This document shows positions 4,770-62,211 of a DNA stretch of 64,000 nucleotides, in pieces. Source of the DNA: Eledone cirrhosa (lineage: Eukaryota); assembly GCA_964016885.1 (NCBI GenBank), contig OZ024741.1, forward strand, positions 104,842,001 to 104,906,000, written 5' to 3'. The translations under genes and the position numbers were made by a program. Position 1 is the stretch's first letter. Each line of letters begins with the position of its first letter. The notes beneath the pieces are model-generated. The model saw only the letters and a list, made by a program, of their open reading frames with translations, was not told where the DNA came from and did no database searches.

Positions 4770-4982
4770 GAGATATCCACGACAAGTTGTGGGGTCTAGT
4801 CTGCATGAAGAACTCAATGTAATCCATATGTTGAAAATGTTGTAGGTTAAAATAAATCCCGGGAAACAATAAAACATTAAAAGGAAAACAGAGTCATGAT
4901 ATAAGTTAAAACAATGAAATAAAAAATCAAGTCATTAGAAATATACTTCACTGCTTTACGATCGTTTCTAGGTGATGATAAT

Positions 4983-5113
4983 TGTTTCTACTTTAGGCAC
5001 AAGGACAGCAATTACCCAGTACATTACTGGTACTTTATTTTATCGACCCCGTAAGGATGAAAGGCAAAGTTAACCTCGGCGGGATTTGAACTCAGATCAT
5101 AAAGGGACGTAAC
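4983..5113 (-). mobile_element. 5'-truncated tRNA-derived SINE with a Nin-like central domain and a 16-bp TSD
   Basis: Minus strand gagttcaaatcccgccgaggttaactttgcctttcatccttacggggtcgataaaataaagtaccag; TSD tctaggtgatgataat at 4967-4982 and 5114-5129. Confidence 0.88.
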
Positions 5114-5752
5114 TCTAGGTGATGATAATACATCGTAACTAGACTTCGATATCGATCTATGTAAAGTTAGTTACAAAATATCAGATAAAGAGAATATTTA
5201 CTTACATGCATATCACCAGCTGTTATCAAAAGCAATAATAATTTTATTCAAAATTAGTAGTAAATTAGTATTATGTTTAGTTCTATGACCTTGTTTGGAG
5301 GTAGTTGAAGAACTAACCAATCAGATTGTTTTATTCCATATGATGTTAAGATGAAAAATAATTCACTCTAGTTGAGGTCATGACCCTTTGAAAGGAATGG
5401 TTGAATGGTGTTAATAACAGAATTGCCATAAAAAATCTATTAGGAAGAAAGGGATTGTCAAATTGATAGTTGAATGTATATGGTATAGTGAAGTTTAAAA
5501 GGAATGTAAAAATTAAATGTTGAGTTGTGTTCTATGGAGTTTTTAGGTGAATATAAATTAAGGTCATGGGTAGGAAAGATAGTATATTAAAAGATGAAAA
5601 TTATAATAAGATAATGAAATACAGAAATACAATAATATAATATAATATAACACAATATAGTACGGTGTGGTAAATTGTACTTAGTATAAAACGATAGTAA
5701 ATCAGTGAAGTATATTTCTAATGACTTGATTTTTTATTTCATTGTTTTAACT

Positions 5753-15090: not shown

Positions 15091-15379
15091 TCCCCTTGTA
15101 TGTCTTTCTTACTTTGAGAGAGTGGGATTGGCATCGACAAAGCTTTTCCTTACGTAAAAAAGATTCAAGCACAGGCATCGCTTGATATGTGACATTTTTT
15201 GCAATGCTGGGCATAGGCTAGTGCCTAGCAGGACTAAAACAAACCACGTCCGTGATGCTCATGCTTAAGTATTAAGCGATGTCATTATTCGAAATCGAGT
15301 TTCAGCTATCATGTGTGTATATATAGATGCAAGTATAAATACAGTATTGTAAGCTATTTAGTGGTATATTACGTGTTCC

Positions 15380-18300
15380 TCAGCTCCACCAAAGCCCGCA
15401 AGCTACACTCACTCCTCCCAACCACCCCCATCCACCACCACCCGCCCATCCCCATGCGCCCACCACTCTCCACCTCTCCCTCGACCCACACCCCTACCCA
15501 ATCTCCACCACCCCACCTCACCCATCACCCCCCACCCAAACCCCACCACTTGTTGTCACCATACCCCCTGACCTCCCCCTCTCCGCACCTGAGCGCTCAC
15601 TCCTTAGTAGAGGCCTTCGCTTCATACCCCACACTCCGCACAGCGACGAGTTCCGCACCCGAACGATTCGTGCGACGAACGAAGCTACAGGCACATTTCG
15701 GCCGAACGCCACCGGCTCCGGACGCCCCAGACCCGTTTCTCGCCCTGGGCCGACGACCATCTTCTTGGACGCCGGCCCCAGGGCAATTTAGCACCCTGGA
15801 CGCGTTCGTCCATGCCAGCCGTAGCGCAGTAAATCGTTTCGACTTCCGCCACGGTTCCAAACGGTACAATATCTCACGGGGCGAACTCCTCGCTCTCCGC
15901 TCCCTCCGTAGCCGAGATGACCTCGTCATCAAACCGGCGGACAAGGGAGGCGCCGTGGTGGTGTGGCGCGCGGACCTCTACACGGCCGAAGCCCTCAGGC
16001 AGCTCTGTAACCTCACTTCTACCGCCCTCTACCCTCCGATCCCACCCCCTCTACCAACAACAAGTCTCCTCCACCATCCAAGACCTTATCGCCTCCTCCC
16101 TCCTCCCCCCACCGCTTCCCGCCTCATCATCCGCACCCCCCGCACCCCCACCATCTACTTCCTCCCCAAACTCCACAAACCCGACAACCCCGGCCGCCCC
16201 ATCGTCTCCGCTTGCAACTGCCCCACCGAACTCATCTCCGCCTTTCTCGACTCCATCCTCGCCCCCCTTGTCACCACCCTCCCCTCCCACATCTCCGACA
16301 CCAACTACGCCCTGCGCCTTTCCGACTCCTTCACCTACCCACCCGGCCCACAGCCCTTCCTCTTCACCCTAGACATCAAGTCCCTCTATACCGTCATCCC
16401 CCACGCCGACGGCCTACGCTCCCTCAAACACTACCTCGACCTTTGCCCCTCCCCCATTCCCTCCACCCCCACCCTCCTTCGCCTCGCCGAGCTGGTCCTC
16501 ACCCTCAATTGTTTCTCCTTCTCGGGTGAGTTTTACCAACAGGTCACGAGGGTAGCCATGGGTACAAGAATGGGCCCGAACTATGGCAACCTTTTTGTTG
16601 GCCATGTTGAGGCCCAAATCTTTGCCCAGTACACCGGCCCCACGCCCGAACTGTACGGTCGTTACATTGACGACTGTATCGGAGCCACGACCCTCACTCG
16701 AGAACAGCTCGACTCCTTTCTCTCCTTCTTCTGCTCCTTCCACCCCTCCCTCCACTTCACCACCTTTATCTCCACCACCCACGTCCACTTCTTAGACATC
16801 TCCGTCGCCTTCGACCCCTCCCACTACTCCCTCGTCACCTCCGCCTTCTTCAAACCTACCGACTCCCACTCTTACCTCGACTTCACCTCTTCCCACCTCA
16901 CCCACACTAAACACTCCATTCCCTACTCCCAACTCCTCAGGATCCGCCGCCTCTGTAGCCGAGATGCTGACTTCGAGTCCCAGGCCCTTTCCCTAGTCAG
17001 CTATTTCATCCGCAGAGGTTACCCCCCTCTCTCGTCCACACCGCTCTCACCCGCGCACGTGCTGTCCACCGATCCACCACCCTCACCTACGCCACCGCAC
17101 ACCCACCCACCGTCTCCCCTTCCCCATCACCTACCACCCCTCCACCTTACCCCTCCACCGCACCATCCGCCGCCTCTTCCGACCCCTCCACCTCCCACAT
17201 CTTCCCAACGCCACCACTCCCCTCCTTCAAAAGCGCACGCAATTTCCGCACCCTCCTCGTCCACACCTCCCTACCCCCAACCCACGCTCTTCCCCCCCCG
17301 TTCCTTTCCCTGTTCTAGGCCCCGCTGCAACACCTGTCCCCACATCACCAACACCACCACCTTCCCGGGTCCCAACGGCCACTCTCTCTCTGTCCGGCAT
17401 GCCTTCCGCTGCACCTCCTCCAACCTAGTCTACGGACTTCGCTGCACGGAGTGCATCGCAACTCACGTCGGACAGACGGGACGTCGCCTGGCGGACCGAT
17501 TCACTGAGCACCTCCGGGATATTCGTCTCGGTGGTAGTTCCCCCATCGCCCGCCACTTTGGTGCCCCTGGACATTCGCACGCCATCTCACAGTCTGTGGC
17601 CTACTCCAATGCCACGGAACACCCGCCAATCTCCTTAGAGTCGAACAAAGAACTATCTTCATCTTACAGACCCACACTCCCCCCGGCCTGAACTCCCCAC
17701 ACTTATTCCTTTAGCCTTCTACCGCCCCCCTCCCTCCCCACATATCCCCCACTAACACACCCCTCCTTTTCACCGCCCACCCCACAACTAACAATACTAA
17801 CACCTCCACTCCACCCCTCATCCGACCACCCTTCCCCAACTAACATACTAACATCCTTCCCCCCTCCTTATCACACGCACACACCCACCGGCACATATAT
17901 ACACGCGCTCACACTAAACACACACCCTACTACCACCACTAACCCTCACCCCCACACCTCCATCCCACCACCCCGCAACTAACCTCACTAACACCCCCTG
18001 ACCCCAAGCACACGAACACACGCACCCACTTACACCACCCACCCCACACGCAACTAACATCACTAACACCCCCCAACCCCACGCACACGTACCCACACAC
18101 CCTCGTACACCACCAACTCTACACACCCTACCACCACTAACCCCCACTCACACCTGCATTCACCCCTTCCCCACCTCCCGTATACTAACACCCACTAACA
18201 CCCCTTTCATCAAACTACACACACACCAGTACACCACACTCCCTCCATAGAACTACACACACCCTTCTCTCCCGCTCCACCCACACCCTCGCTCCACACT

Positions 18301-21426: not shown

Positions 21427-21618
21427 GTCAGGGCGGTGGATTGGCAGTATCGCTAGAGGGTCGGACGCCATGCTTTGAAGCATAGAGTTACCTCCCTTTA
21501 TGATCTGAGTTCAAATCCCGCCGAGGTTAATTTTACCTTTCATCCTTACAGGGTCGATAAAATAAAGTACCAGTAATACACTGGAATAATTGCTGGCCTT
21601 GTGCCAAAAGTAGAAACA
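21427..21618 (+). mobile_element. Full-length tRNA-derived Nin-domain SINE with a 14-bp TSD, inserted in a family A copy
   Basis: A-box TGGCAGTATCG, B-box GAGTTCAAATCC; TSD attatttctggcaa at 21413-21426 and 21619-21632. Confidence 0.9.
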
Positions 21619-21914
21619 ATTATTTCTGGCAATATTATTACAACAATATGACCTTCCCCAAGTATAACAATATATATATATATATACATATATATGTTTG
21701 TATAAGTGTATATGCATATATAAACGCAATGTTATAGGCTATTTAGTGTTATACTACGTCCAATTAAAACAGTGATAACTCTCAGCTATATCAGATAAGG
21801 ATTACTTTGCTAAGAAGATTAGAAAGATTAACGATAACTTGTGTAATAATCATTTGTAGATGTCTACAAACACACACACACATATAAATGTATATATGTA
21901 TATATCCACCTACC

Positions 21915-24646: not shown

Positions 24647-24927
24647 ATAGTTGTTTCTACTTTTGGCACAAGGCCACCAATAAACCCTAGTGTATTACTG
24701 GCACTTTATTTTATCGACCCAGTAAGGATGAAAGGCAAAGTTAACCTCGGCGGGATTTGAACTCAGACCATAAAGGGCCATAACTCTTTGCTGCAAAGCA
24801 TGGCGTCCGACCCTCTACCGATACTGCCAATCCACCTCACAATAATTGTTTCTACTTTTTGGCGCAAGGCCAGCAATTAACCAGTCAATTACTGGTACTT
24901 TATTTTATCGACCCCGTAAGGATGAAA
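24647..24927 (-). mobile_element. Two tandem Nin-domain SINE copies (24647-24840 full; 24843-24927 3' part)
   Basis: Reverse complement of 21427-21618. Confidence 0.88.
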
Positions 24928-34749: not shown

Positions 34750-34910
34750 GATATAATATAATATATGATCAATACTTTGGTGCACAGAAATATATATCTT
34801 TATCTTCTTCCATATTTATTTGGAGAACGAAAAAGCCGCCGCAACAAATGATATGTTTACATAGCTTGGCTTACTGATTAAAACTTGCTCTGATTTTAGA
34901 CAGACATAGA

Positions 34911-37562
<2,652 letters not shown>

Positions 37563-38361: not shown

Positions 38362-38566
38362 ATTGTGGCTTTTTAATGGGCTTTCTCCACGAATGTTCCT
38401 CGGAAGTCTCCCCCCTATTGGGGAATTTTTTCATTGTTCTATTATTACATCCTCTGTTTTTTGGGGTTTTTTACACGCAGAAATGCCCTTTTGTACCGTC
38501 CTGTATTGTCCTGTACGGTCCTTAATGTCTACTTTGTGTAAACCTTTGTGGTTAATAAAGAAAGCA
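38362..38566 (+). mobile_element. 5'-truncated 3' UTR copy of the Tx1/L1-type LINE in (TTA)n
   Basis: Homologous to 49828-50041; (TTA)n on both sides. Confidence 0.9.
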
Positions 38567-38581
38567 TTATTATTATTATTG

Positions 38582-41500
38582 TTCTTTGAGTCTCAGTCAT
38601 TGATGTTATTTAACTGGAAAGTTTGTTGAAATGAATATCAAGCCGCTACCTGCAGCCTCAGATATTCAGGACGTATCGGAGGGTTCTTGCTGTTCCCAGC
38701 AAGCATTCCTTTTGAAGTGTTCCAAAAAGCGGGGCGGGACCAATTTTCTTTAACCACCCTTGGAAACTCTTTGAGATAGTACCTAGTGCGCCTATGACAA
38801 TCGGAACCACTTTGACTTCATGGCAGTTCCAAATCCTTTTTACCTCCCACTTTAAGTCCTGGTATCGGTTAATTTTCTCCCTCTCCTTCTCTTGCACTCT
38901 TGTGTCGAATGGGCAGGCTACATCCACAATCAGGCACGATCTTTTTTCTTTGTCCACCAGGTCAGGTCTATTGTCTTCCAGTTTCTTGTCCGTCTGTATC
39001 CTAAAATCCCACAGCACCTTCACCTGATCGTTTTCCATCACCGACTCTGGCTTATGCTCATACCACTTCTCAGAATGTGGTAAATTGTTTACTTTGCATA
39101 GGTGCCAGTGGATCACCCTGCCCATCACATCATGTCTCCAGCCTTTATAGTGAGTCTGGGCTAGGTGTTTACACTCGGATACAATGTGATCCACAGTCTC
39201 CTCTCTCTCTCCACAGATCCTACACAGTGGGCTAGCCTCCTCGTTGTAAATATGGTGTTTCAGCCACTTCGTTTTGAGGGCCTGCCCTTGCGCAGCCATT
39301 AGCATTCCTTCTGTAGCCTTTTTAAGGTCTCATCTTTTCAACCAGTTCCATGTCTGTGGATCTCTAAATTCAGTTTTCTCAAAGAAGGTACTATGAAGGG
39401 ATTTTCCCTGAAGGCTGCTCTTTCTCCTTGTTGTTATTTCCTCCTTGGACATCCCTGGTCTATTGTCTTCCTCTTCAGTACAATTCTGAGCATTGGCTCC
39501 CTACTATCAGTCACGTATTTGTGTAGGTTGTTTTTCTCCATCTGAACACAGTGCTCTATGCTGATAGCAGTGTTAGTTATAGAGTAGTCGCCACTTTAAC
39601 AGGGTAGATTATTAAGTAGTCGTGGTCAGTGTGGTAAGTGATAGTATCCTCGTTGGGTTATCTTGTTGACATAGACGTGAGGGAAGGCCCCTCGATCTAT
39701 TTACAATATTCCTTTCGTCAGGTCGCCAATTCCAGCAGCATGGATTATAGATGTTATTGAGACACGAGTAACATAAAAATGATTTCAACAGCAGAAATTA
39801 GAGATGAAATGTATGTTTATTTTTGATGTAGCACAAACAATGTTTGTTAACTTATATGGTTGAAGTTACAGATAAGAAGAGGTTACAAAAGGGAATGTGC
39901 CATTGCGCCGTTAAGCCGGCGAGGCTAGGGTGCAAATCTCACCGTTACATTATGCGTGTTGCTGGCTTGAAGTTTCTGGTACAAGAGAGAGATTCTTCAA
40001 ATCTTCGCGGGGAATTTCTTCCTCAGGGCGCGTAGGGATACATCCTCTTCTACTGGCGCTGATTGGCTGAACTGAGCCAAATCACGCACAGAGAATGTAT
40101 GTGAGCCCGCGGAATGTAGGTCACTACATCACCTCCGACCAGATTTTCAGCCGAAAATCGATAACGAAGAAACCAAGGACCCACATATTATTGAATCAGC
40201 AAGAACAAATGCTGAAAGAGCACATCAGTGAAAAAATAATTGAGCAGAAAGATTCATGCAAGAACAAAAAAAAAATTAGGCGCGACGGGCCGTGTTGAGC
40301 CGCTGTCAAATGACTAGCTGTTTTGTAGTTTAAACGAGACCCCCAAGGGCCTACCAGAAAACAGATAAAGTCTGACATGGGCGAAGTTGCTGTTCTTGCA
40401 TTAAATGTTAATGGTAAGTGTTGTACCAGTAGCTGTGAACGAAGCTATTATGGTAGTTTACCAGTGCTGGCGAGAAAATGATGGCCCCCAGATGTATTGT
40501 CGAATGTGCTGTGGAGCCAGGAAAAAATGGCTGGTTGCTTTGTAAAGAAAAAAAAAGCAAGTTTAGTCTGTAGGTGGGTTGCAGTGTAAATTCCATAATT
40601 CGGGCGAATCCACAGAAGTGGCCGAAATGCTGACAAGTCCAGTTCAATTTGTTGCTTTCCCAGCGAGTCGGGCAAAAATAACAAGACAGATGGCCGTCAT
40701 GGACGATTAGTGTGCAACGAGATGCGAAGCTGTTTGAGTTCAGCTGCAATTAGTATTCTCGTGTTGCGGTGCCTATTTGAATCCAGTGGAGTAAGCTCTG
40801 TGAGCTGCTAGCATGGGTGCAAATCTCACCGTTACATTATGCGTGTTGCTGGCTTGAAGTTTCTGGTACAAGAGAGAGATTCTTCAAATCTTCGCGGGGA
40901 ATTTCTTCTTCAGGGCGCGTAGGGATACATCCTCTTCTACTGGCGCTGATTGGCTGAACTGAGCCAAATCACGCACAGAGAATGTATGTGAGCCCGCGGA
41001 ATGTAGGTCACTACAACCTCTTCCACCTTCAGATCTCCTTAAGTAGAGTCTATCGACATCACTCCTCTTGTGGAACATGTTGTAGAAAGTCAATAGCTTC
41101 CTATACTTCCTATCCATTTCTTTTTGTTCAGCAACATTCCATCTCAGAATTCCCGCACTGTACCTAATAATAGACACAGCTCCGGAATTCACTGCACTTA
41201 TGGCATTCCTACTACTTAGATGTGATTTTAATACGCTCCTTACTCTCCGAATGTATTCAGATCTTATCAATTCCTTCATTTTTTTGTTCTTGATGTCATC
41301 AGCCTCCAGCACACCTACATATTTGTATCCTTCTTCAGTGTCAATTTCCTTTATCATCTCACCTGTTGGTACCTGGATTCCGTTGCTTCTGCTCAATTTA
41401 TCCCACTTCATCACAAGGACTCCACACTTACTAATACCAAATTGCGTACATATATCATTGCTTAAAATACGGACAGTGTCAACAAGTATATCCAACTCCT

Positions 41501-43560
41501 TCTCACTCTTCCCGAAGCGCTTAAGATCGTCCATGAAGAGGAGGTGATTGATGATAGGCTCTCGCTTTCACAACTTGTATCCTGCTCTCACTTTTCGCAG
41601 TATAATGGTCAGGGGTATCTTCACGACTTCTAAAGATTCTCCAGCCGATGTTAAATCTGTTTCCCAGGACTTCATACTTTTGCTCAACAACTGTCTGATG
41701 TTATCTGCCACCTTGAAGATCTCTAGGCTTTTGGTGATCCAAGAATGAGGCACCATGTCAAATGCCTTTTTGTAGTCTATCCATCCCATGGCAAGACCAG
41801 TGTATCTCTTCCTGCAATTCCTCATTACCATCTTATCAATAAGTAATTGGTCCTTTGTACCACGGGACTTCTTTCTGCATCCTTTCTGTTCGTCTGGTAA
41901 CAAGTTGTTTATGTGGAGGTGATGGTAGATTTCCTCAGACACAATGCTTGTTAACAGTTTCCACATTACGGACAGACATGTGATAGGTCTATAGTTGGTA
42001 ACATCATTACCCTTAATTCGGTCTTTCATTACCAGAACTGTGGTACCTTTTGTGAACCACCCTGGTACCTCACCTGACATCAAGCAGTCATTGAACATGG
42101 TTGTCAGTTTCGGGTGGAGAGATGTTATATTTTTAATCCAATACCCCTGCACACCATCTGGGCCTGGTGATTCCAGTTGGTTAGTTTTTTGGCCTGCCCC
42201 TTAAGAGTTTCAACTGTGATACTCAAATCAGTTTGTTGGTGTGCCTGTTCACTAATCTCCTTTTGTACTGTCTCAATCCACACTGCCTGATCATTATGTT
42301 TAACATCCTTCTCCCATATTCCTCTCCAGAATGTCTTAATTTGTTCCGCCTCAGGGATCAAGTCGTTGCCTCTTTCTTTCCCTTCAAGCTGTCCAAACAA
42401 CATCTTCTGGTTGTTGTCAAACATGCGGTTCTGTCTATACTGACTGACTCTGCTCTCGTATCGCCTAATCTTTGCACTCTTTGCTACAATGCGTTGCTTC
42501 AGTTCCTCTATGATAATATTTAGCTTTTTCATCCTAGTTTTGTACTTTATTTCCAGTCTATTTTTAGTGTCTATGTTTTTTAATGTCCCATTCAGTAGGG
42601 ACTCAAGCTTTCCAATGTCATTTCTCATTTCCCTGATTTGACCACTCAGTCGTTTCTTCCACCAAGGTTCTGATATTTCTTGTTTGTTGTTTTCTCTCGC
42701 TTTTATGCCAAGTAATTTCCTCACCGCATTTAATGTTGTTTTGAGGATATTGTTGCACTGGTGAAGGCTCCTTGCCTCAAGGTATGGGATGACTTTGTTT
42801 ACCTTAGCTGTTGTTTCTTTTAACTTTTTCCTGTCTACAAATCTTAGGTTCATAGGTTTCCCACTATCATTGTTCATTTCATCTACCACTAAGTTTAGGA
42901 TATCAACCAAATCTTGTCCTAGCCCGTCAGCATTCATTTCCTCAATGGCCGTATCTTTGTTCCAGGTATTATTTATTTCAGCATTCAGATCATTGTCTGC
43001 TTCGGATGCTTCCTCCGTTCTCTCAACCTCTTCATCTTCATCTCCCACTGGCTTGTTTCCCTGGCATACTCCACTCTCCATTTCCAACCTAATCTCTCTG
43101 CTCAGTTCCTCCAGTTCCAGCTCGCTTATCCACCCATTAGTTCTTATTAGCCGAGCCTGCCCGGCCAATTTTTGTTCATCTAATTTAAATAGACCAATCT
43201 CGTTCCAGATGTTATGCATCCGTTTCCTATAGCCTTTTTCCTTGGGGTTACTCTTCAAGTAACATTGCATAACAGTTCTATTCAATTCTTTCGTCCAGTT
43301 GGTTCTGGTCCCTTTCCTTCTTCTTCCTCCAACACCAGCAGTATTTGGATGACAGCCAGGTCCCTGCTGCTGGGCCAGGGAGCACCTGCTGGATGAGAGT
43401 CTGTCACATGGCATTCCAGTCTCCACTTCACCGTTATTCGAACTGTTTAGGTTCGACATTTAAACACTCATATCGAGGATTGGTGAATGTATGGTTACAT
43501 AACTACCTGTGATTTCATCACCCCCGGTGGTTTTAGCGTGGCATTAGCACGCTGTAGACG
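38582..43560 (-). mobile_element. R4/Dong-type non-LTR retrotransposon (single ORF: RT + CCHC + restriction-like endonuclease), disrupted
   Basis: ORF pieces 42125-43459, 41568-42152, 40884-41534, 38658-39305: NYRPITCL, WIDYKKAFD, FMDD, YKYVG, CRIC..H..C, RHD, RPD..D..EK..Y..L; 3' end abuts (TAA)n. Confidence 0.92.
39571..41015 (-). mobile_element. Internally deleted LTR retrotransposon nested in the Dong-type ORF (3' LTR 39571-40128; truncated 5' LTR 40816-41015)
   Basis: ~200-bp direct repeat starting TGTAGTG on the minus strand, LTR ends CTAACA, TATA-like and AATAAA inside, purine-rich tract before the 3' LTR; splits EGGRG|..SIEHC; no clear TSD. Confidence 0.75.
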
Positions 43561-43864
43561 AACATAAATAAATTAACAAATAAATAGATAAAAACTTTAA
43601 AAAATAAAAATAAACATAAGTTTCATTGTAATGTTTGAATGTCTGACTTAGTTTTTTGTTTGTTTGTTTGTTTTTTCCTTTGCGTTTTTCGTTTTACAAG
43701 GCCAGTAACATCGGTTACTAGTGTTGTTGTTGCTGCTGCTGCTAAGGCAAGTATGGGTTGTTGTGTTCAAAACTTTTGAAATTCGTGTTTGTTGTTGCGT
43801 TTGCTTCTGTCTGTGTTCTGTTCTATAATTTTTCGACTTATTGGTTATCATTATTATTTTTTTT

Positions 43865-43950
43865 CCTTTCATCCCTTCGAGGCCGACACAACAAAGCACC
43901 TGCAACACACCGGGACAATTGCTGGCCCCGCGCCAAAAGCAGAAACAATT
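43865..43950 (+). mobile_element. Nin-domain SINE 3' part, T>C hypermutated
   Basis: Aligns without gaps to a by-eye consensus of the other in-window copies, with 13 T>C changes. Confidence 0.85.
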
Positions 43951-44284
43951 ATTATTATTATATTATAGTTTAGATTTGACATCGTTTAAACTAAACATTT
44001 TGAGAGAGTTTAGAGATACAACATAATTATTTTGGTGTTGTTATTATTATTATTATTATTATTATTGAATGCTATGGTTGACGGAGGCTCGGCTCTGTAA
44101 GGTATTGTAAATTTTGAACGCTATAACAATTGTAAATTGTTTAAAACTTAGACCAACTTGTAGACAAAAACACCCTCCTCCTCGTGAGAGGGGTCTTTCT
44201 GCCCGTTATTTGGCCCTTCGGGGTTAAATAACTGCTTATTGGGGTTTTGTACCCAATATTTATTTTAAACAAAAAAAAAACAAC

Positions 44285-46358
44285 ATGGCTACGAAAAAGA
44301 AATTTCATAGGTCACTCCCACTCATTCCGTCTTCTTCCTCAATCATCACTACAGCAGAGAGAAGATTGTCTCTCTCCCTCCCTTCTCTTTCGCAAGCAAA
44401 GAAAGAAAAGAAAAGTCTCGTGCAAAGCGTGTAAGGTTTCTCCACGACGACGACGACAGCAACGAAACAGGTGTGCGGGAAATACGAAAACCCAGTTCAT
44501 TCGTCTGACGTCAGGAATAATAGCAGTAGCAGCCGTAATAACAACAGCAACAGTGACAATGAAAACAACAGTAGCAGCCGCAACAGCATCACCAGCAGCA
44601 TAAACAACAACAGCATTAGCAGCAGCAACACCAACAACAACCACAGCAACAGCGGCGGAGGCAGTAGTCGTAGTACCTGCAGCAACAACAAAAGTAACAG
44701 CAGCTCTGACAACAACAACAACAACAGCAGCAAAGAAAAGCCAATCTCATTTGCAGGTATTGCGAAAAACTTGGAAACAATCCTCATAACAAATGAGGAA
44801 TTAGAGGAAGCGAAGAAGATGGTGACAAAGAATGGACACCGAGCAATCTGCAAGGCAGCGGAAACATTTTTCGAAACCCAACAGCACTGTACAGTAAGTA
44901 CAGTAAGTACAAAATCCCATAGGGTGGAAAGAGCCACAGAGGCTCAAATACAAAAAGCCTTGGGGTCTGTGTGGCAGCGGAAAACGCACATCACCCGAGG
45001 CAAAAAATATGCCACCGTAGACGTACTTTTTGCCACACCCCAGGAGGCAAAGGCCCAATCCGTAGTGACCCTAAGGAGCGAGGAAATGGTGTTGGTGCCC
45101 TCCTACTGCGGGCAAAAAATTGTGAGGGTCAAACTGACCCACGTCCCCCCCCCCCCCCCGGAATGGCCCTTCTTGGCTGGCCGCGTCTGTCCTCGTCGGA
45201 ATCGAGGACAAAACAACTGTACTGCAAGTACAGAAAAAAGTAAGAGAAGATTGGGTCGGCACCTCCATTGAGATGCTAATCCAAACCAACGAGGAGTGCA
45301 TCGAAGCTATCCCGGATGTGATAGACTTCGATAACGGCACTCAACTGCCCATAAGTGTTGAGGGAAAACGTCCGAAATGCTTTCGATGTGGATCGAAGAC
45401 TCACCTCAGGGCCTTCTGCAACGAGAAGATCCTGAGAAAGGAGAAAACCCCCCTCCTTCCGAAACCGGCTCCACGGCTACCAGCAACAGGACAAGCGGCA
45501 ACCAGGAACGATACGTCCGTGGCACCCATAGCCACGCCACGGAAATCAAAAACAGCAGCAGCAGTGGAAATATTAACAACAACAACAGCAATACCAAATG
45601 CAGCTGCAACAGAGACTCCAGTGCAAACATCACCAACAACAACAAGTGAAAGAGTGGAGCTGGTACCCCTCCCCGACCTCACAGAATCAGACATGGAGTG
45701 TGAGGTGGGAGAGGGATGGCAAAAGGTCGTAAGAAGGCACAAACGCAGAAGAAGCGCATCGTCGCCTTTGAAAAGGGAGGAAAGAAATGAGAAAAGGGTA
45801 AAGTCTACTGCAAATAGACCCACAGCAGCAACACCACCAACACCATCACCACCCACACTAGCACCACCATCACCACCGGCGACAACCCCACCGCCAACAA
45901 CACCTTCAACACCACCACCACAAGCACCAACATCGCAAACACAACAACAAAACACACACACCCAGCAACAACGACAAGTAAATAGCAGAACCACACCCCA
46001 CCCCCAGAAAAACAAATGCACGGCAATAAATACACACAACAAGAAACTAATGACTTACATAATTGAACACACAGACATTTCACAACACGACTACATAATA
46101 CCAGCACCAATCAAAACGCCAACTAACATAAGATTTCTAAAAATAGCACAGAAACAATACACAAACATTAAAACGAAATTCCCCAACGCAGTTGGTGATT
46201 TCAGGGACCTAGGAGGAACTATCAATCGAAGAGTATATTCAGACATTCTCATAGAAGAGCCGACGATCAGCCGAAGGGACGATTCAACGGTCCCTTCACC
46301 AGACGATCAAGTGAAAAGGGATGTAAAAACCATCCCTCCTCTACCAAAAGTACGGTAA
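44285..46358 (+). pseudogene. LINE ORF1 (N/S-rich N-terminus, CCHC zinc knuckle, P/T-rich tail), with a stop and a frameshift at the poly-C run near 45150
   Basis: Track ORFs 44471-45271 and 45273-46358; CFRCGSKTHLRAFC. Confidence 0.8.
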
Positions 46359-46393
46359 GTGGTCTTTCCCATCTTTTCCACTCTATTTTAAAC

Positions 46394-49300
46394 ATGACTT
46401 CACTCAGAATAGGCAGCATAAATGCGCGTGGCTTGGAGTCGTCATGGAAGCAGGGTCATCTGCTGAACGACCTCAGGTCACTAAACATAGATGGCCATCA
46501 GCGAGACCAGAATCTCCGAAGCACGGGCCTTCGCACCGATCTTCGGCGGCTACGAGGTGTACGCATCTCCCAGCCGTCCTGGATCGGGGGAGGAATTGCT
46601 GTGCTTTTTCGGAGAGGTTTGGATCTCGCCATACGGGCCATCTTCCTGGACCCAGAGGGTAAGCTGGTGGTGCTGGACGTGACCAGCGGAGACGGGCAAG
46701 CTTTCAGGCTAGTGGCCGTCTATGCCCGACAGGAGCAGGGCGGCCTGATTTCTTCCGGCGTCTTTAGTGTTAGTGGGCGACTGGAACGGGATCTTAGATG
46801 CACGCTGGGACTGTGTGGGATTAGCGGATAGGGGTGGAGGGTGCAAGAGCCTCACCAACCTGCTCAGGCGTTTTGAACTGTCTGACAGGTACCGATTGGA
46901 TTTCCCGAATGTGCCAATGTGGACTTGGACAAATCGCATACGGTCATCCAGATCATATCTAGATAGAGTATTTTGTAGGGAAATAGATAGGTCTAGCAGA
47001 GGCTGTCCACAATTCAAGATAGTCAGCTACACGGACCACAAATTCGTGATCTGTGTGCTTGACTTAGATAGGCTTCATAGACGAGGACCCGGCTACTGGA
47101 AGCTAAACGCGTCCTTACCAGCGCGCAAGGCCTACAGAGACCGGATTAGCGAACTAGTTAAGCGGGCGTTGACGGGGGCCATCGTCAACAACAAGTGGTG
47201 GTTTGCTCTGAAAAGAGCGATTAGAATAGAATCCATTAGGTTTAGTAAGGCTTTAGCAATAGAGAAAAATAGAGCAGAGGGAGAACTAGTTAGAAAATTA
47301 GACGAGGCGCATAGTAAAGGCATTGCGACCGACGTGCTTGCGGCGAAATTGGCCCTCGACCAATTCTTCAATGCAAAGCACGAAGGCTGCGTTGTCAGAG
47401 CAAGGGGGCGTGCTCTCAGACACGAGGGGACGAAAGCCGTTCAATGGGCCCGAGTGGCGGAGGCGCGTCGTGGCAACAAAGCCACGATCCGGTCTTTGGT
47501 GGACCACGACGGGCGCATGCTACTCGATCCCGGGCAAATGTGTGAAGCTTTTCAGCGACACTTCGCTCAGCTGTTCGGGGGCAGCGGGGGGCCGGGTAGA
47601 GGGATGGACTTTAGTGTCTACCTCGACGGACTGCCGCGGCTCTCGGCCACTGAGGCGAAGTGTTGCGAAAAGCCGATAACAGCCGCTGAAGTACGGGAGG
47701 CAATGACTGGCTGCACAAGGGGTAAATCGCCTGGTTTGGATGGTCTGCCCTATGAACTTTACGTACAGATGCCAGACTTGTTCGGAGGCCTCTTGGCGGA
47801 CGTCTACTGCAACTGGCAACAGAACGGGAGAATTCCCAGTTCTGTGAGCCGAGGAGCGGTGGCACTGCTGAGAAAGGATCCGAACAAGGGGGATAACATA
47901 GACAATTTCCGGCCCATAACTCTGCTAAACACAGAGTTTAAGATTTTGGCCAAGGTGCTAGCAAAGAGGTTGGCGCTTGTCGTTGGTGGTCTGGTGGGAG
48001 AGGCGCAGACATGCGCCATTCCCGACAGATCCATCCACGACAACCTCCACCTCATGCGATACATCGTAGAGAGGGTAGCTAGGGAACCTGGCACGGGTGG
48101 GTCCTTGATCAATTTAGATCAGTCGAAAGCTTTCGATAGGGTCGACCATCGTTACCTAGCGGCAGTCCTGAGGGCGGCTGGCTTTGGGCCCGTCTTCAGA
48201 GGCTGGATCGCTGCCATGCACAGCGACATCTGCTCTGTGGTGAGAGTGAACGGTCACCTGTCGGAACCGTTCAACATCATGCGCTCGGTCCGCCAAGGAT
48301 GTCCCCTCTCGTCCCTCTTGTACGTATTGACTCTCGAGCCATTACTGCACAAACTGGAGACGTTGAGGGGAGTCCCGCGCGAACTAGGATGCGGAAGATC
48401 CGTGTCAGCATATGCGGACGATGTCACCGTAGTGGTGTCGAACGCCAAACACATCGAGGCAATCGGCACTACACTAAGAGAATACGAAGCGGTGACAGGA
48501 GCAATGATCAACCAGGAAAAGTCAGTGGGCCTGCAGCTCGGCACCTGGAGAGGCAGGTCCATGCCGTCCAACAGCGTCGTCGGGCGCTGGACGGACGGAC
48601 CGGTTAAATTGCTAGGGGTCTGGTTCGGTCCGGACCTTCAGACGGACAAAAACTGGAACGAGGTGACGCGCAGGGTGGCTTCTCTCACCCAGAAATGGGC
48701 GGAGAGGAAGCTATCCCTGAAAGGTCGAGCGGAGGTGGCTAACGCGTACATCGCGTCTGTCATCTGCTACCGCCTAACCGTCGTACCTTGTCCTAAGCCT
48801 CGCCTGACTGCGCTGGAGCGTTTGCTCTTTCGCTTTTTGTGGAAGGGACGTGCTCCGATGGTCAGGCGGTCCATCTGTTGTCAACACCCGCTACGTGGAG
48901 GGCTGGGCATGCCGTGGCTGATGATGCGCAGGCACGCGCTCAGGCTACGACATCTCCACCTCTTCCTCGACGGTGATCAGGTGTGGTCGCCGTTTGCTAG
49001 ACGCGTTTTTCCCCAGCTCGTTTCCTTGACGGAGCTGCAGTCCTGGGTCAAGCGAAGACCGAGAGGGAGCGCCTGGAGACTGGAATGTCTTCAGGCGCTC
49101 ACAGCCCTCGACCAATCGGGCAATGTGATCGGTGGAAACTCCACCTCGGCGTTCTATAGAGGATTAGTGGAGGGGAAGAGCGACGACGTACTTGGGGAAA
49201 CTCTAGGCGTCGACGAAAATCAACTAGCCAATCTCTTCGGAAGAACTTTCGGGCCAGGGCCTATGGACAACTTCCAGAAATCTCTGGCCTGGCAGTGCTA

Positions 49301-49778
49301 CCGAGGAGCCTTGCCAGTTCGGGATAAACTCTACAGGCATGGAGGTGCCGTCAGCCGGGCATGTCCGAGATGCGCGCATGGCGACGAAACCGTCCTGCAC
49401 GCACTCGTCCAGTGTCCGAAAATTGCTGACTTGTGGGTTTATGTCGAACACCTGCTGTCGCGTTTAGGACGGATCCAGCTATCATCTGGGTCTATCGTGA
49501 GGATTGCCCCGCCCTCCTCCTTTAGCCGGGAAGGGCAGGCAGTTTTTATCTGTCTGGTGGCCATGGCGAAAGAGATAGTATGGTGGACACGTTTGAAAGG
49601 GCTGAAGACGAGCACTTACCTCTTCGGTGATGCTCTGATTGACTTTTTCAAATTTCATTTGAAAAGGAAAATCAGAGTAGAGAGGGAAGTGCTCTCTTCC
49701 CAGCATTTTGTTGAAAGATGGGTGAGAGAAGCAAGAATGGCCCGAGTGAATGGGCCGACTCTGAGTATATATCTGTAA
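46394..49778 (+). pseudogene. LINE ORF2: APE endonuclease (frameshifted) + intact RT + C-terminal CCHC
   Basis: GSINARGL, AISET, GDWN, SYLDR, TDH, KSPGLDG, NFRPITLLN, DQSKAFD, QGCPLS, YADD, CPRC..H..C; 1003-aa open frame 46767-49778. Confidence 0.93.
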
Positions 49779-50039
49779 ACTAAAGGTGGAAAACTGGGAG
49801 AGGGCACTTGCCTTGGTGGTCAGGGTCATTGTGGCTTTTTACTGGGCTTTCTCCACAAATGTCCCTCCGAAGTCTCCCCCCTATTGGGGAATTTTTCATT
49901 GTTATTTTCATTGTTATTTTTGTTACATCCTCTGTTTTTGTTTTTTTTACACGCAGAAATGCCCATTTGTACCGTCCTGCATTGTCCTGCACTGTCCTTA
50001 ATGTCTACTTTATGTAAACCCTTGTGGTTAATAAAGAAA

Positions 50040-50104
<65 letters not shown>

Positions 50105-61894: not shown

Positions 61895-62014
61895 AAGAGG
61901 GAAGTGGGAGAGAGATAGAACCTTCTTTTCGTGTTTAATAATAACATATATTCATCTCTCTCTCTCTCACTCTCTCTCTCTCATTATATATATATCTATA
62001 TATATATTTAAAAG

Positions 62015-62191
62015 AGTGGTGGGTTGGTAGTATCGGTAGAGAGTCGGACACCATGCATTGCAGCATAGTTACGGTCTGAGTTCAAAACGTGCCGAGGTTA
62101 ACTTTGCCTTTCATCCTTAGGTGTTTGATAAAATAAAGCACCAGTAATGCGTTGGGATAATTACTGGCCTTGTGCCAAAAGTAGAAACAAT
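62015..62191 (+). mobile_element. Nin-domain SINE
   Basis: Homologous to 21427-21618. Confidence 0.85.
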
Positions 62192-62211
62192 TATATATAT
62201 ATGCGTGTGTG

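Follow-up and report, generated by a model that had tools for sequence, protein, structure and literature searches.

A-to-G clusters in retrotransposon copies of Eledone cirrhosa as a probable genomic record of RNA hyper-editing

The window analysed here, a stretch of 64,000 nucleotides from Eledone cirrhosa, contains a SINE fragment in which the changes are largely of one type, T>C (Table 1). How could such a one-sided cluster arise, and how did it become part of the genome? Very probably, it goes back to sporadic ADAR hyper-editing of retrotransposon RNA, which target-primed reverse transcription would have fixed in DNA. This reading is based on the comparison of genomic copies.

Table 1. 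Features of the window that are discussed in the text
Feature	Positions	Strand	Basis or remark
Edited SINE 3' fragment	43865..43950	+	SINE consensus positions 109-194; 13 T>C = A>G on minus (LINE RNA) strand
Unedited full-length SINE, comparison seed	21428..21622	+	Alignment to SINE consensus
Dong/R4-like non-LTR retrotransposon, carrier of the edited fragment	38578..44040	-	RT, CCHC knuckle, presumed restriction-like endonuclease motifs; ORF broken
Remaining part of LINE 5' UTR	43460..44040	-	Subfamily-diagnostic changes mostly T>C on plus strand
LINE ORF, first open stretch	42125..43459	-	444 aa, start at 43459
LINE ORF, C-terminal part	38658..39329	-	Zinc knuckle and RHD / PD / D / K endonuclease motifs, from translation by eye
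(TAA)n at truncated 5' junction of LINE	44041..44066	.	Sequence
(TAA)n at 3' junction of LINE	38566..38580	.	Sequence

The reference for the focal counts was a consensus built from 194 SINE alignments. Positions 43860-43951 differed from it at 19 sites, two of them in the poly-T upstream of 43865 and 17 within 43865-43950. T>C made up 13 of the 17 differences, and 7 of the 13 were at TA; the original prediction had given the same three figures. Its comparison copies were also recovered (4979-5117, 21428-21622, 24648-24836 and 62013-62193). With an assumed T>C share of 0.25, which is generous, the excess in the fragment was significant (binomial p=1.2e-5).

The fragment is part of a LINE. A profile search of the ORF found RVT_1 (E=5e-11) and, below the cut-off, zf-RVT (E=5e-4); the RHD / PD / D / K motifs are what we take to be the restriction-like endonuclease. 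(TAA)n was found at both focal junctions and at the 5' end of the family consensus. Judged by the RT and the C-terminal knuckle and endonuclease motifs in one ORF and by the (TAA)n site, the element is classified as Dong/R4-like. At its 5' end, ~500 nt are missing compared with full-length copies. The original prediction had placed the fragment just upstream of a Dong-type element: the association held, and the position turned out to be inside the 5' UTR. As the fragment runs antisense within the LINE transcript, each plus-strand T>C corresponds to A>G on that RNA. SINE insertions target ATT tracts in retroelement UTRs, and in Dong they were antisense in every copy seen. A PDB search with the N-terminus of the ORF gave no match. 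For three Dong loci, Rfam (no custom descriptor) gave no match to an HDV-like 5' ribozyme and only microsatellite-driven miRNA matches. The focal ORF is interrupted by a 1.45-kb insertion (39567-41015), and a 206-bp direct repeat (39927-40134 and 40814-41019, 98.6%) was found there.

Dong is described from Bombyx (PMC3774820) and Octopus bimaculoides (PMC9115989). The element resembles Dong/R4 in having one ORF with RT, C-terminal knuckle and endonuclease motifs and in its location in TAA repeats, a likeness drawn from motifs and site, not from an RT tree. Unlike Dong as described there, it has a 5' UTR of ~1.1-1.2 kb which accumulates SINE insertions, and Rfam detects no 5' ribozyme.

A genome search with the focal fragment gave 728 candidates, of which the best 40 were scored (92-100% identity). 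All 29 other top loci fetched had LINE flanks in common, and each continued into a Dong-like ORF. An edit-independent anchor gave 89 places; 67 further loci and 7 others were fetched, and two of these 74 (L063, L091) turned out to be something else. Of 104 loci (window included), 80 had 7 or more of the 11 founding edits, so the copy is not unique; the original prediction had suggested looking for the same flank in other Dong copies. Its proposal that a Dong transcript carried the fragment also fits, with the fragment inside the Dong 5' UTR at the 80 loci and the edits on the Dong RNA strand. By this distribution, the cluster goes back to one event, which the LINE amplified into at least 80 copies. 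The founding cluster (E1) comprises 11 T>C among 12 consensus changes in the 18 copies of subfamily S1. Of the 13 focal T>C, 11 belong to E1, one was gained in subfamily S2 and one is apparently private. Because at most this one of the 13 looks private (SINE position 175), the cluster was not made at the focal locus.

The C-rich fragment is multi-copy, and it could therefore be the ancestral state, represent a normal subfamily of the SINE or have arisen in assembly. Exact matches numbered 181,420 for the 24-mer of the unedited SINE, compared with 29 for the triple-C pattern. The C-rich form is thus widespread only as an edited fragment amplified by the LINE, while the SINE itself is in the T state. 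The LINE flanks shared by the 29 other top loci and the basal LINE copies, which have an unedited SINE or none, likewise speak against an ordinary subfamily. An artefact is ruled out by raw reads and by one contig that was identical over 43814-43907 (0 differences). A look at raw DNA reads had been advised in the original prediction: the C state was in the majority in Illumina reads of two other samples, e.g. with T at 43892 in 7 of 32 (X6) and 5 of 24 reads (X7), these reads deriving from many family copies and not from the focal locus alone. We consider an ancestral or ordinary subfamily or an artefact practically negligible as an explanation.

The number of T>C per SINE alignment was bimodal (n=194, a sample enriched for edited loci by design): 106 alignments had 0-3, 88 had 8-23 and none had 4-7. 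Other transitions never exceeded 7 per alignment in the same edited-enriched sample. Among copies with 0-3 T>C, A>G (212) outnumbered T>C (49) on the sense strand of the SINE, mainly at subfamily-polymorphic positions such as 76, 151 and 159. This surplus could represent single edits fixed in SINE masters.

Further clusters were added after E1. A second antisense SINE has a head cluster with 13 T>C among 17 changes in 10 S1b copies; the other four changes are at SINE-polymorphic positions. In the later steps of the non-SINE UTR, T>C made up 4 of 7, 8 of 8 and 14 of 18 changes (hand-picked groups). All later subfamily clusters are on the same strand, i.e. A>G on the LINE RNA. Automated subfamily binning was noisy, with 20 of 102 copies unassigned and the S4 to S5 cluster lost at the 70% threshold, and the steps were recounted by hand; S5 is defined by its own T>C cluster. 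An ORF-only tree of 38 copies of at least 2 kb, rooted by us on the SINE-less copy L077, is a ladder: copies with no SINE or an unedited one are basal, followed by S1 and then by S2-S5. Support was 93-99 for the derived clade and weak at the base. Four copies (L055, L057, L085, L097) were misplaced and are probably chimeric or mis-chained. Both edited SINE segments are combined in L055, L088 and L098 (recombination or conversion), with extra private T>C in L055.

Shared changes in the UTR were strand-asymmetric (T>C 38/345 versus A>G 11/222, p=0.014). Those shared in the ORF had no significant asymmetry (49/1206 versus 21/686, p=0.31), and singletons were symmetric (in the ORF, T>C 4.85 and A>G 4.66 per 1000). 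Asymmetric shared UTR changes together with symmetric singletons indicate that the bias arises in the transposing lineage and not in resident DNA. Private clusters were nearly absent in the 102 mapped Dong copies, and an antisense SINE insertion common to four S2 copies (L002/L011/L021/L070) had passed RNA cycles without editing. Hence, editing appears to be sporadic and does not affect every transcript. In the non-SINE Dong UTR, predicted stems held no excess of T>C sites (mean pairing 0.33 versus 0.36, p=0.52), and a cis hairpin as the cause of these clusters is unsupported. As their sites fall outside predicted stems and 5'-G is not significantly depleted there (see below), the non-SINE layers are the weakest part of the case and would need an antisense transcript as partner.

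Among the 38 long copies, shared ORF T>C had mostly 5' U/A neighbours (41/609 versus 8/597, G depletion p=0.003; codon position uncontrolled), with no bias in singletons and no strand excess; these changes are perhaps dispersed edits surviving selection. In another Dong subfamily (L148:3007-3203), two antisense SINE fragments have 14 and 7 T>C in patterns of their own, which do not derive from the focal cluster.

A second carrier brings a duplex into view. At one locus, an A>G pattern match was found 140 bp from an oppositely oriented T>C match, which makes an inverted SINE pair. The pair resides in a high-copy, 0.6-kb non-autonomous element (3100 candidates), presumably RTE-like to judge by its motifs. 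Four sibling copies were recovered (L157/158/194/198). Counted against a computationally inferred baseline, 98 of their 118 arm substitutions were A>G on the carrier strand, in both arms and on one strand. Edited adenosines numbered 29/44, 23/52, 25/52 and 21/52 in the arms and 1/20 in each loop (p from 5.5e-6 to 3.6e-3). The edited strand follows the carrier RNA in both genomic orientations. Fourteen edits are common to all four siblings, 8 are private and the remainder is partly shared, as expected from repeated editing rounds. Inverted SINEs also occupy this site of the carrier in a duplicated locus (L167/168), which was unedited, and a carrier copy with a single antisense SINE (L152) had 15 T>C.

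The third case is a donor/copy pair. Compared with the unedited donor (C18), a 3.3-kb retrocopy (C2) had 143 A>G among 180 substitutions in 2.6 kb aligned. The edited adenosines of the copy were in antisense SINE (34/158), (CTA)n (30/88), (TA)n (66/260, in which the alignment is uncertain) and elsewhere (13/423); they were thus concentrated in antisense SINEs and in microsatellites that can pair with themselves. The carrier's own 3' part had 1 A>G among 16 changes in 633 nt. The homology starts inside a minisatellite of the donor and stops precisely where an RTE-like element has its 3' end. The upstream minisatellite of the donor is TAG-rich. TA/CA microsatellite lies on both sides of the copy, so a target-site duplication is unreadable. 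Reads mapped to the copy barely covered the densely edited part and piled up on the unedited SINE head. The copy reads as the 5' transduction of a putative hyper-edited read-through transcript. For the antisense SINEs of the donor, no duplex partner was found within the copied part. The donor locus (5.80-5.86 Mb, L234-L236) consists of a tandemly repeated unit of ~5.3 kb with the minisatellite.

Pattern searches in the SINE population gave 11 T>C matches outside E1, three of low purity (L153-155). With two A>G patterns (19 matches), no lone A>G hyper-edited sense SINE was found; the hyper-edited ones were hairpin carriers only, and 15 of the 18 matches of the second pattern were chance-like (2-4 A>G). 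A C>T control pattern, which fixed two adjacent changes only and was not fully matched, gave 8 matches with 2-7 C>T and no pure cluster. That lone A>G SINEs were not found with these two patterns stands against the ADAR reading, as the SINE retroposes far more often. Three loci had SINEs with 11, 9 and 17 T>C (L149, L191, L192), the last near a 350-bp near-perfect palindrome. At L150:3006-4350, an inverted duplication of ~550 bp has a T>C-clustered SINE fragment in each arm (6 and 9); the edits are therefore older than the duplication. No carrier was identified for L149, L150, L191 and L192. Wherever one was found (Dong, the 0.6-kb non-autonomous element and the transduced retrocopy), the edited strand was the carrier RNA strand.

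The original prediction had offered two routes, the retro-copying of an antisense hyper-edited transcript and the deamination of adenosines in an RNA:DNA hybrid. In the latter, ADAR would have acted on the DNA strand of a hybrid, either on SINE cDNA at insertion or on the template strand of an R-loop. An antisense SINE standing alone with T>C on its sense strand is what cDNA deamination predicts, the focal fragment included. This route would also account for the three SINEs with no identified carrier (L149, L191, L192) and for why fewer lone A>G clusters turned up than T>C clusters. However, deamination of the carrier's cDNA would put the changes on the opposite strand, and the non-SINE Dong clusters are on the RNA strand. 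In the inverted pairs, both arms are edited on one strand, and siblings have private additions. The sole 'lone' case that was traced (L147, 21 T>C) is a young SINE in the C2 retrocopy; its segment has six paralogues, and the same SINE insertion had 0 T>C in two donor-type ones. The hybrid route is therefore disfavoured, and we regard it as improbable. The retro-copying of an edited transcript gained support from the strand, the 80 loci and the independent hairpin and donor/copy cases.

The neighbours of the edited adenosines were also compared between the sets. In the donor pair, the edited share by 5' neighbour was 112/488 for T, 23/215 for A, 6/115 for C and 2/110 for G (p=8e-7). 5'-G was depleted in E1 and E2 (1/7, p=0.011) and in the hairpin family (1/5, p=0.034); the single 5'-G adenosine of the focal cluster was edited (1/1). 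The expected ADAR neighbour bias was thus seen in these three sets; in the non-SINE Dong UTR, 5'-G depletion was not significant (3/39, p=0.35). The pooled 5' bias is inflated, as the search patterns fixed edits at TA/TT sites. Of the adenosines with a 3'-G, 8/9 were edited in E1 and E2, 31/46 in 8 pooled clusters (p=0.005), 7/10 in the hairpin family and 10/122 in the donor pair. The 3'-G preference is inconsistent across clusters: E1 and E2 and the pooled clusters showed it, whereas the hairpin family and, taken as a whole, the donor pair did not. The 5' bias of the donor pair corresponds to the ADAR preference for A, C or U over G that is given in PMC8586724 and PMC6651903. The A_deamin profile had 12 matches over the cut-off in 4 genomic loci, one of which matched human ADAR2 at E=3e-102. 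By this similarity, the genome encodes a putative ADAR2-like deaminase.

Could synthesis errors leave the same marks? Polymerases of the eta type make A>G changes at WA. If such an error-prone polymerase had synthesised the second strand at insertion or had acted in repair of the insertion, the strand and the 5' T/A preference would be the same. The non-SINE UTR clusters outside predicted stems and the 5'-W bias of shared ORF T>C (the 41/609 versus 8/597 above) would suit it as well. On the other hand, 40-70% of A were changed in the hairpin arms versus 1/20 in the loop, and 13/423 in the unique sequence between the edited blocks of the donor pair, a distribution that follows the ability of the RNA to pair and not a tract of synthesis. 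With ~80% purity and very few indels as further points against it, this explanation is very improbable. Under a nucleotide-pool imbalance, reverse transcriptase would have misincorporated C opposite A. Such A>G bursts are known from retroviral work and would affect the RNA strand of whatever sequence is retroposed. They would not spare hairpin loops, unique sequence and the 3' part of the carrier, and we give a pool imbalance hardly any credence.

Under ADAR hyper-editing of RNA, the steps would be as follows. The SINE would insert antisense into an ATT tract of the Dong 5' UTR, as is seen in the copies. The antisense segment would pair with sense SINE RNA, either in trans or with a distant copy in a read-through transcript. 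A duplex partner for the focal fragment was looked for and none was found; in the second carrier, the cis hairpin is evident in the sequence. The edits lie within duplex-forming sequence in the hairpin family and broadly so in the donor/copy pair, and not in cis in the non-SINE Dong UTR. ADAR would deaminate about half of the duplex adenosines, avoiding 5'-G, and reverse transcriptase would read inosine as G, in line with established chemistry. The LINE's own target-primed reverse transcription would likely fix the edits in germline DNA. A copy bearing a cluster would then found a lineage, observed here as at least 80 loci, whose descendants gain more clusters on the same strand.

Several known systems are related to this. 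Avian retroviral A-to-G hypermutation in proviral DNA has been linked to ADAR in RAV-1 (Felder 1994) and avian leukosis virus (Hajjar and Linial 1995; both as cited in PMC8586724). The likeness is that A>G bursts on the RNA strand enter DNA by reverse transcription; the difference is that non-LTR elements and transduced host sequence are affected here, and that the clusters are germline-fixed, inherited, amplified as subfamilies and added in successive rounds. APOBEC 'DNA editing' of vertebrate LTR retrotransposons (Knisbacher and Levanon, PMC4866542) consists of G>A changes that cytidine deaminases introduce into cDNA. According to that screen, other mismatch types were very rare, and 19 invertebrate genomes, used as negative controls, were devoid of DNA editing. 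Both phenomena are strand-biased deaminase clusters fossilised in genomic retroelements and detected against unedited relatives. Here, however, the changes on the element sense strand are A>G and not the G>A of APOBEC, and they would be made at the RNA level, in non-LTR elements and in an invertebrate. Inverted SINE pairs in transcripts are edited by ADAR as Alu-type dsRNA (Zaranek et al., PMC2873906). The hairpin family is similar in that both arms of an inverted pair are edited on one strand with 5'-G avoided, and differs in that the editing, normally RNA-only, is recorded in genomic DNA. According to PMC5224506, human L1 RNA was unedited over >2.5 kb in cell assays.

Searches on editing and retroposition, mostly at the level of abstracts and in openly accessible text, turned up no description of ADAR clusters fixed in the germline of non-LTR lineages. 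What the present case adds is the inheritance and amplification via an active lineage, the successive rounds and the donor/copy pair.

A-to-I editing is usually regarded as a non-heritable change of RNA. The copies indicate that edited RNA can enter germline DNA and be inherited and amplified, and that editing supplied most of the diagnostic changes in the LINE 5' UTR. To our knowledge, germ cells have hardly been sampled in cephalopod editing work. The edited copies would document, as fossils, how active and how specific ADAR has been in the germ line, and a simple donor-versus-copy screen can read this record from assemblies alone. One question that this touches is whether retrotransposons are restricted or helped by ADAR; another is the origin of the A>G excess at edited sites. 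In practice, editing calls are affected as well, because pre-edited genomic copies can mimic hyper-edited RNA reads.

A wider reading is conceivable and, in our judgement, rather unlikely: ADAR may be a recurrent directional mutator of the germline retrotransposons of this animal. Edited masters would be selected as editing erases their complementarity to transcripts of the SINE, which has >180,000 copies, so that silencing through dsRNA or small RNAs no longer reaches the LINE transcript. If so, host editing would drive the succession of LINE subfamilies. Edited host transcripts, too, would be written into the genome by the same machinery, kilobases at a time, and this Lamarckian-like route from RNA to DNA may also carry edited gene sequence.

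Other retroelements were seen in the window. A second LINE (44067-50104, plus strand) with RT (E=8e-29) and zf-RVT lies head-to-head with the Dong-like element, and its 3' end recurs at 38365-38565; by its layout, we take it to be L1/Tx1-like. Both LINEs and the SINE are nested in (ATT)n tracts, which act as hotspots. Two RT-bearing frames on the plus strand, 15256-17691 (RVT_1 below the cut-off) and 34900-36426, are presumably Penelope-like, with C-termini that we take to be GIY-YIG-like.
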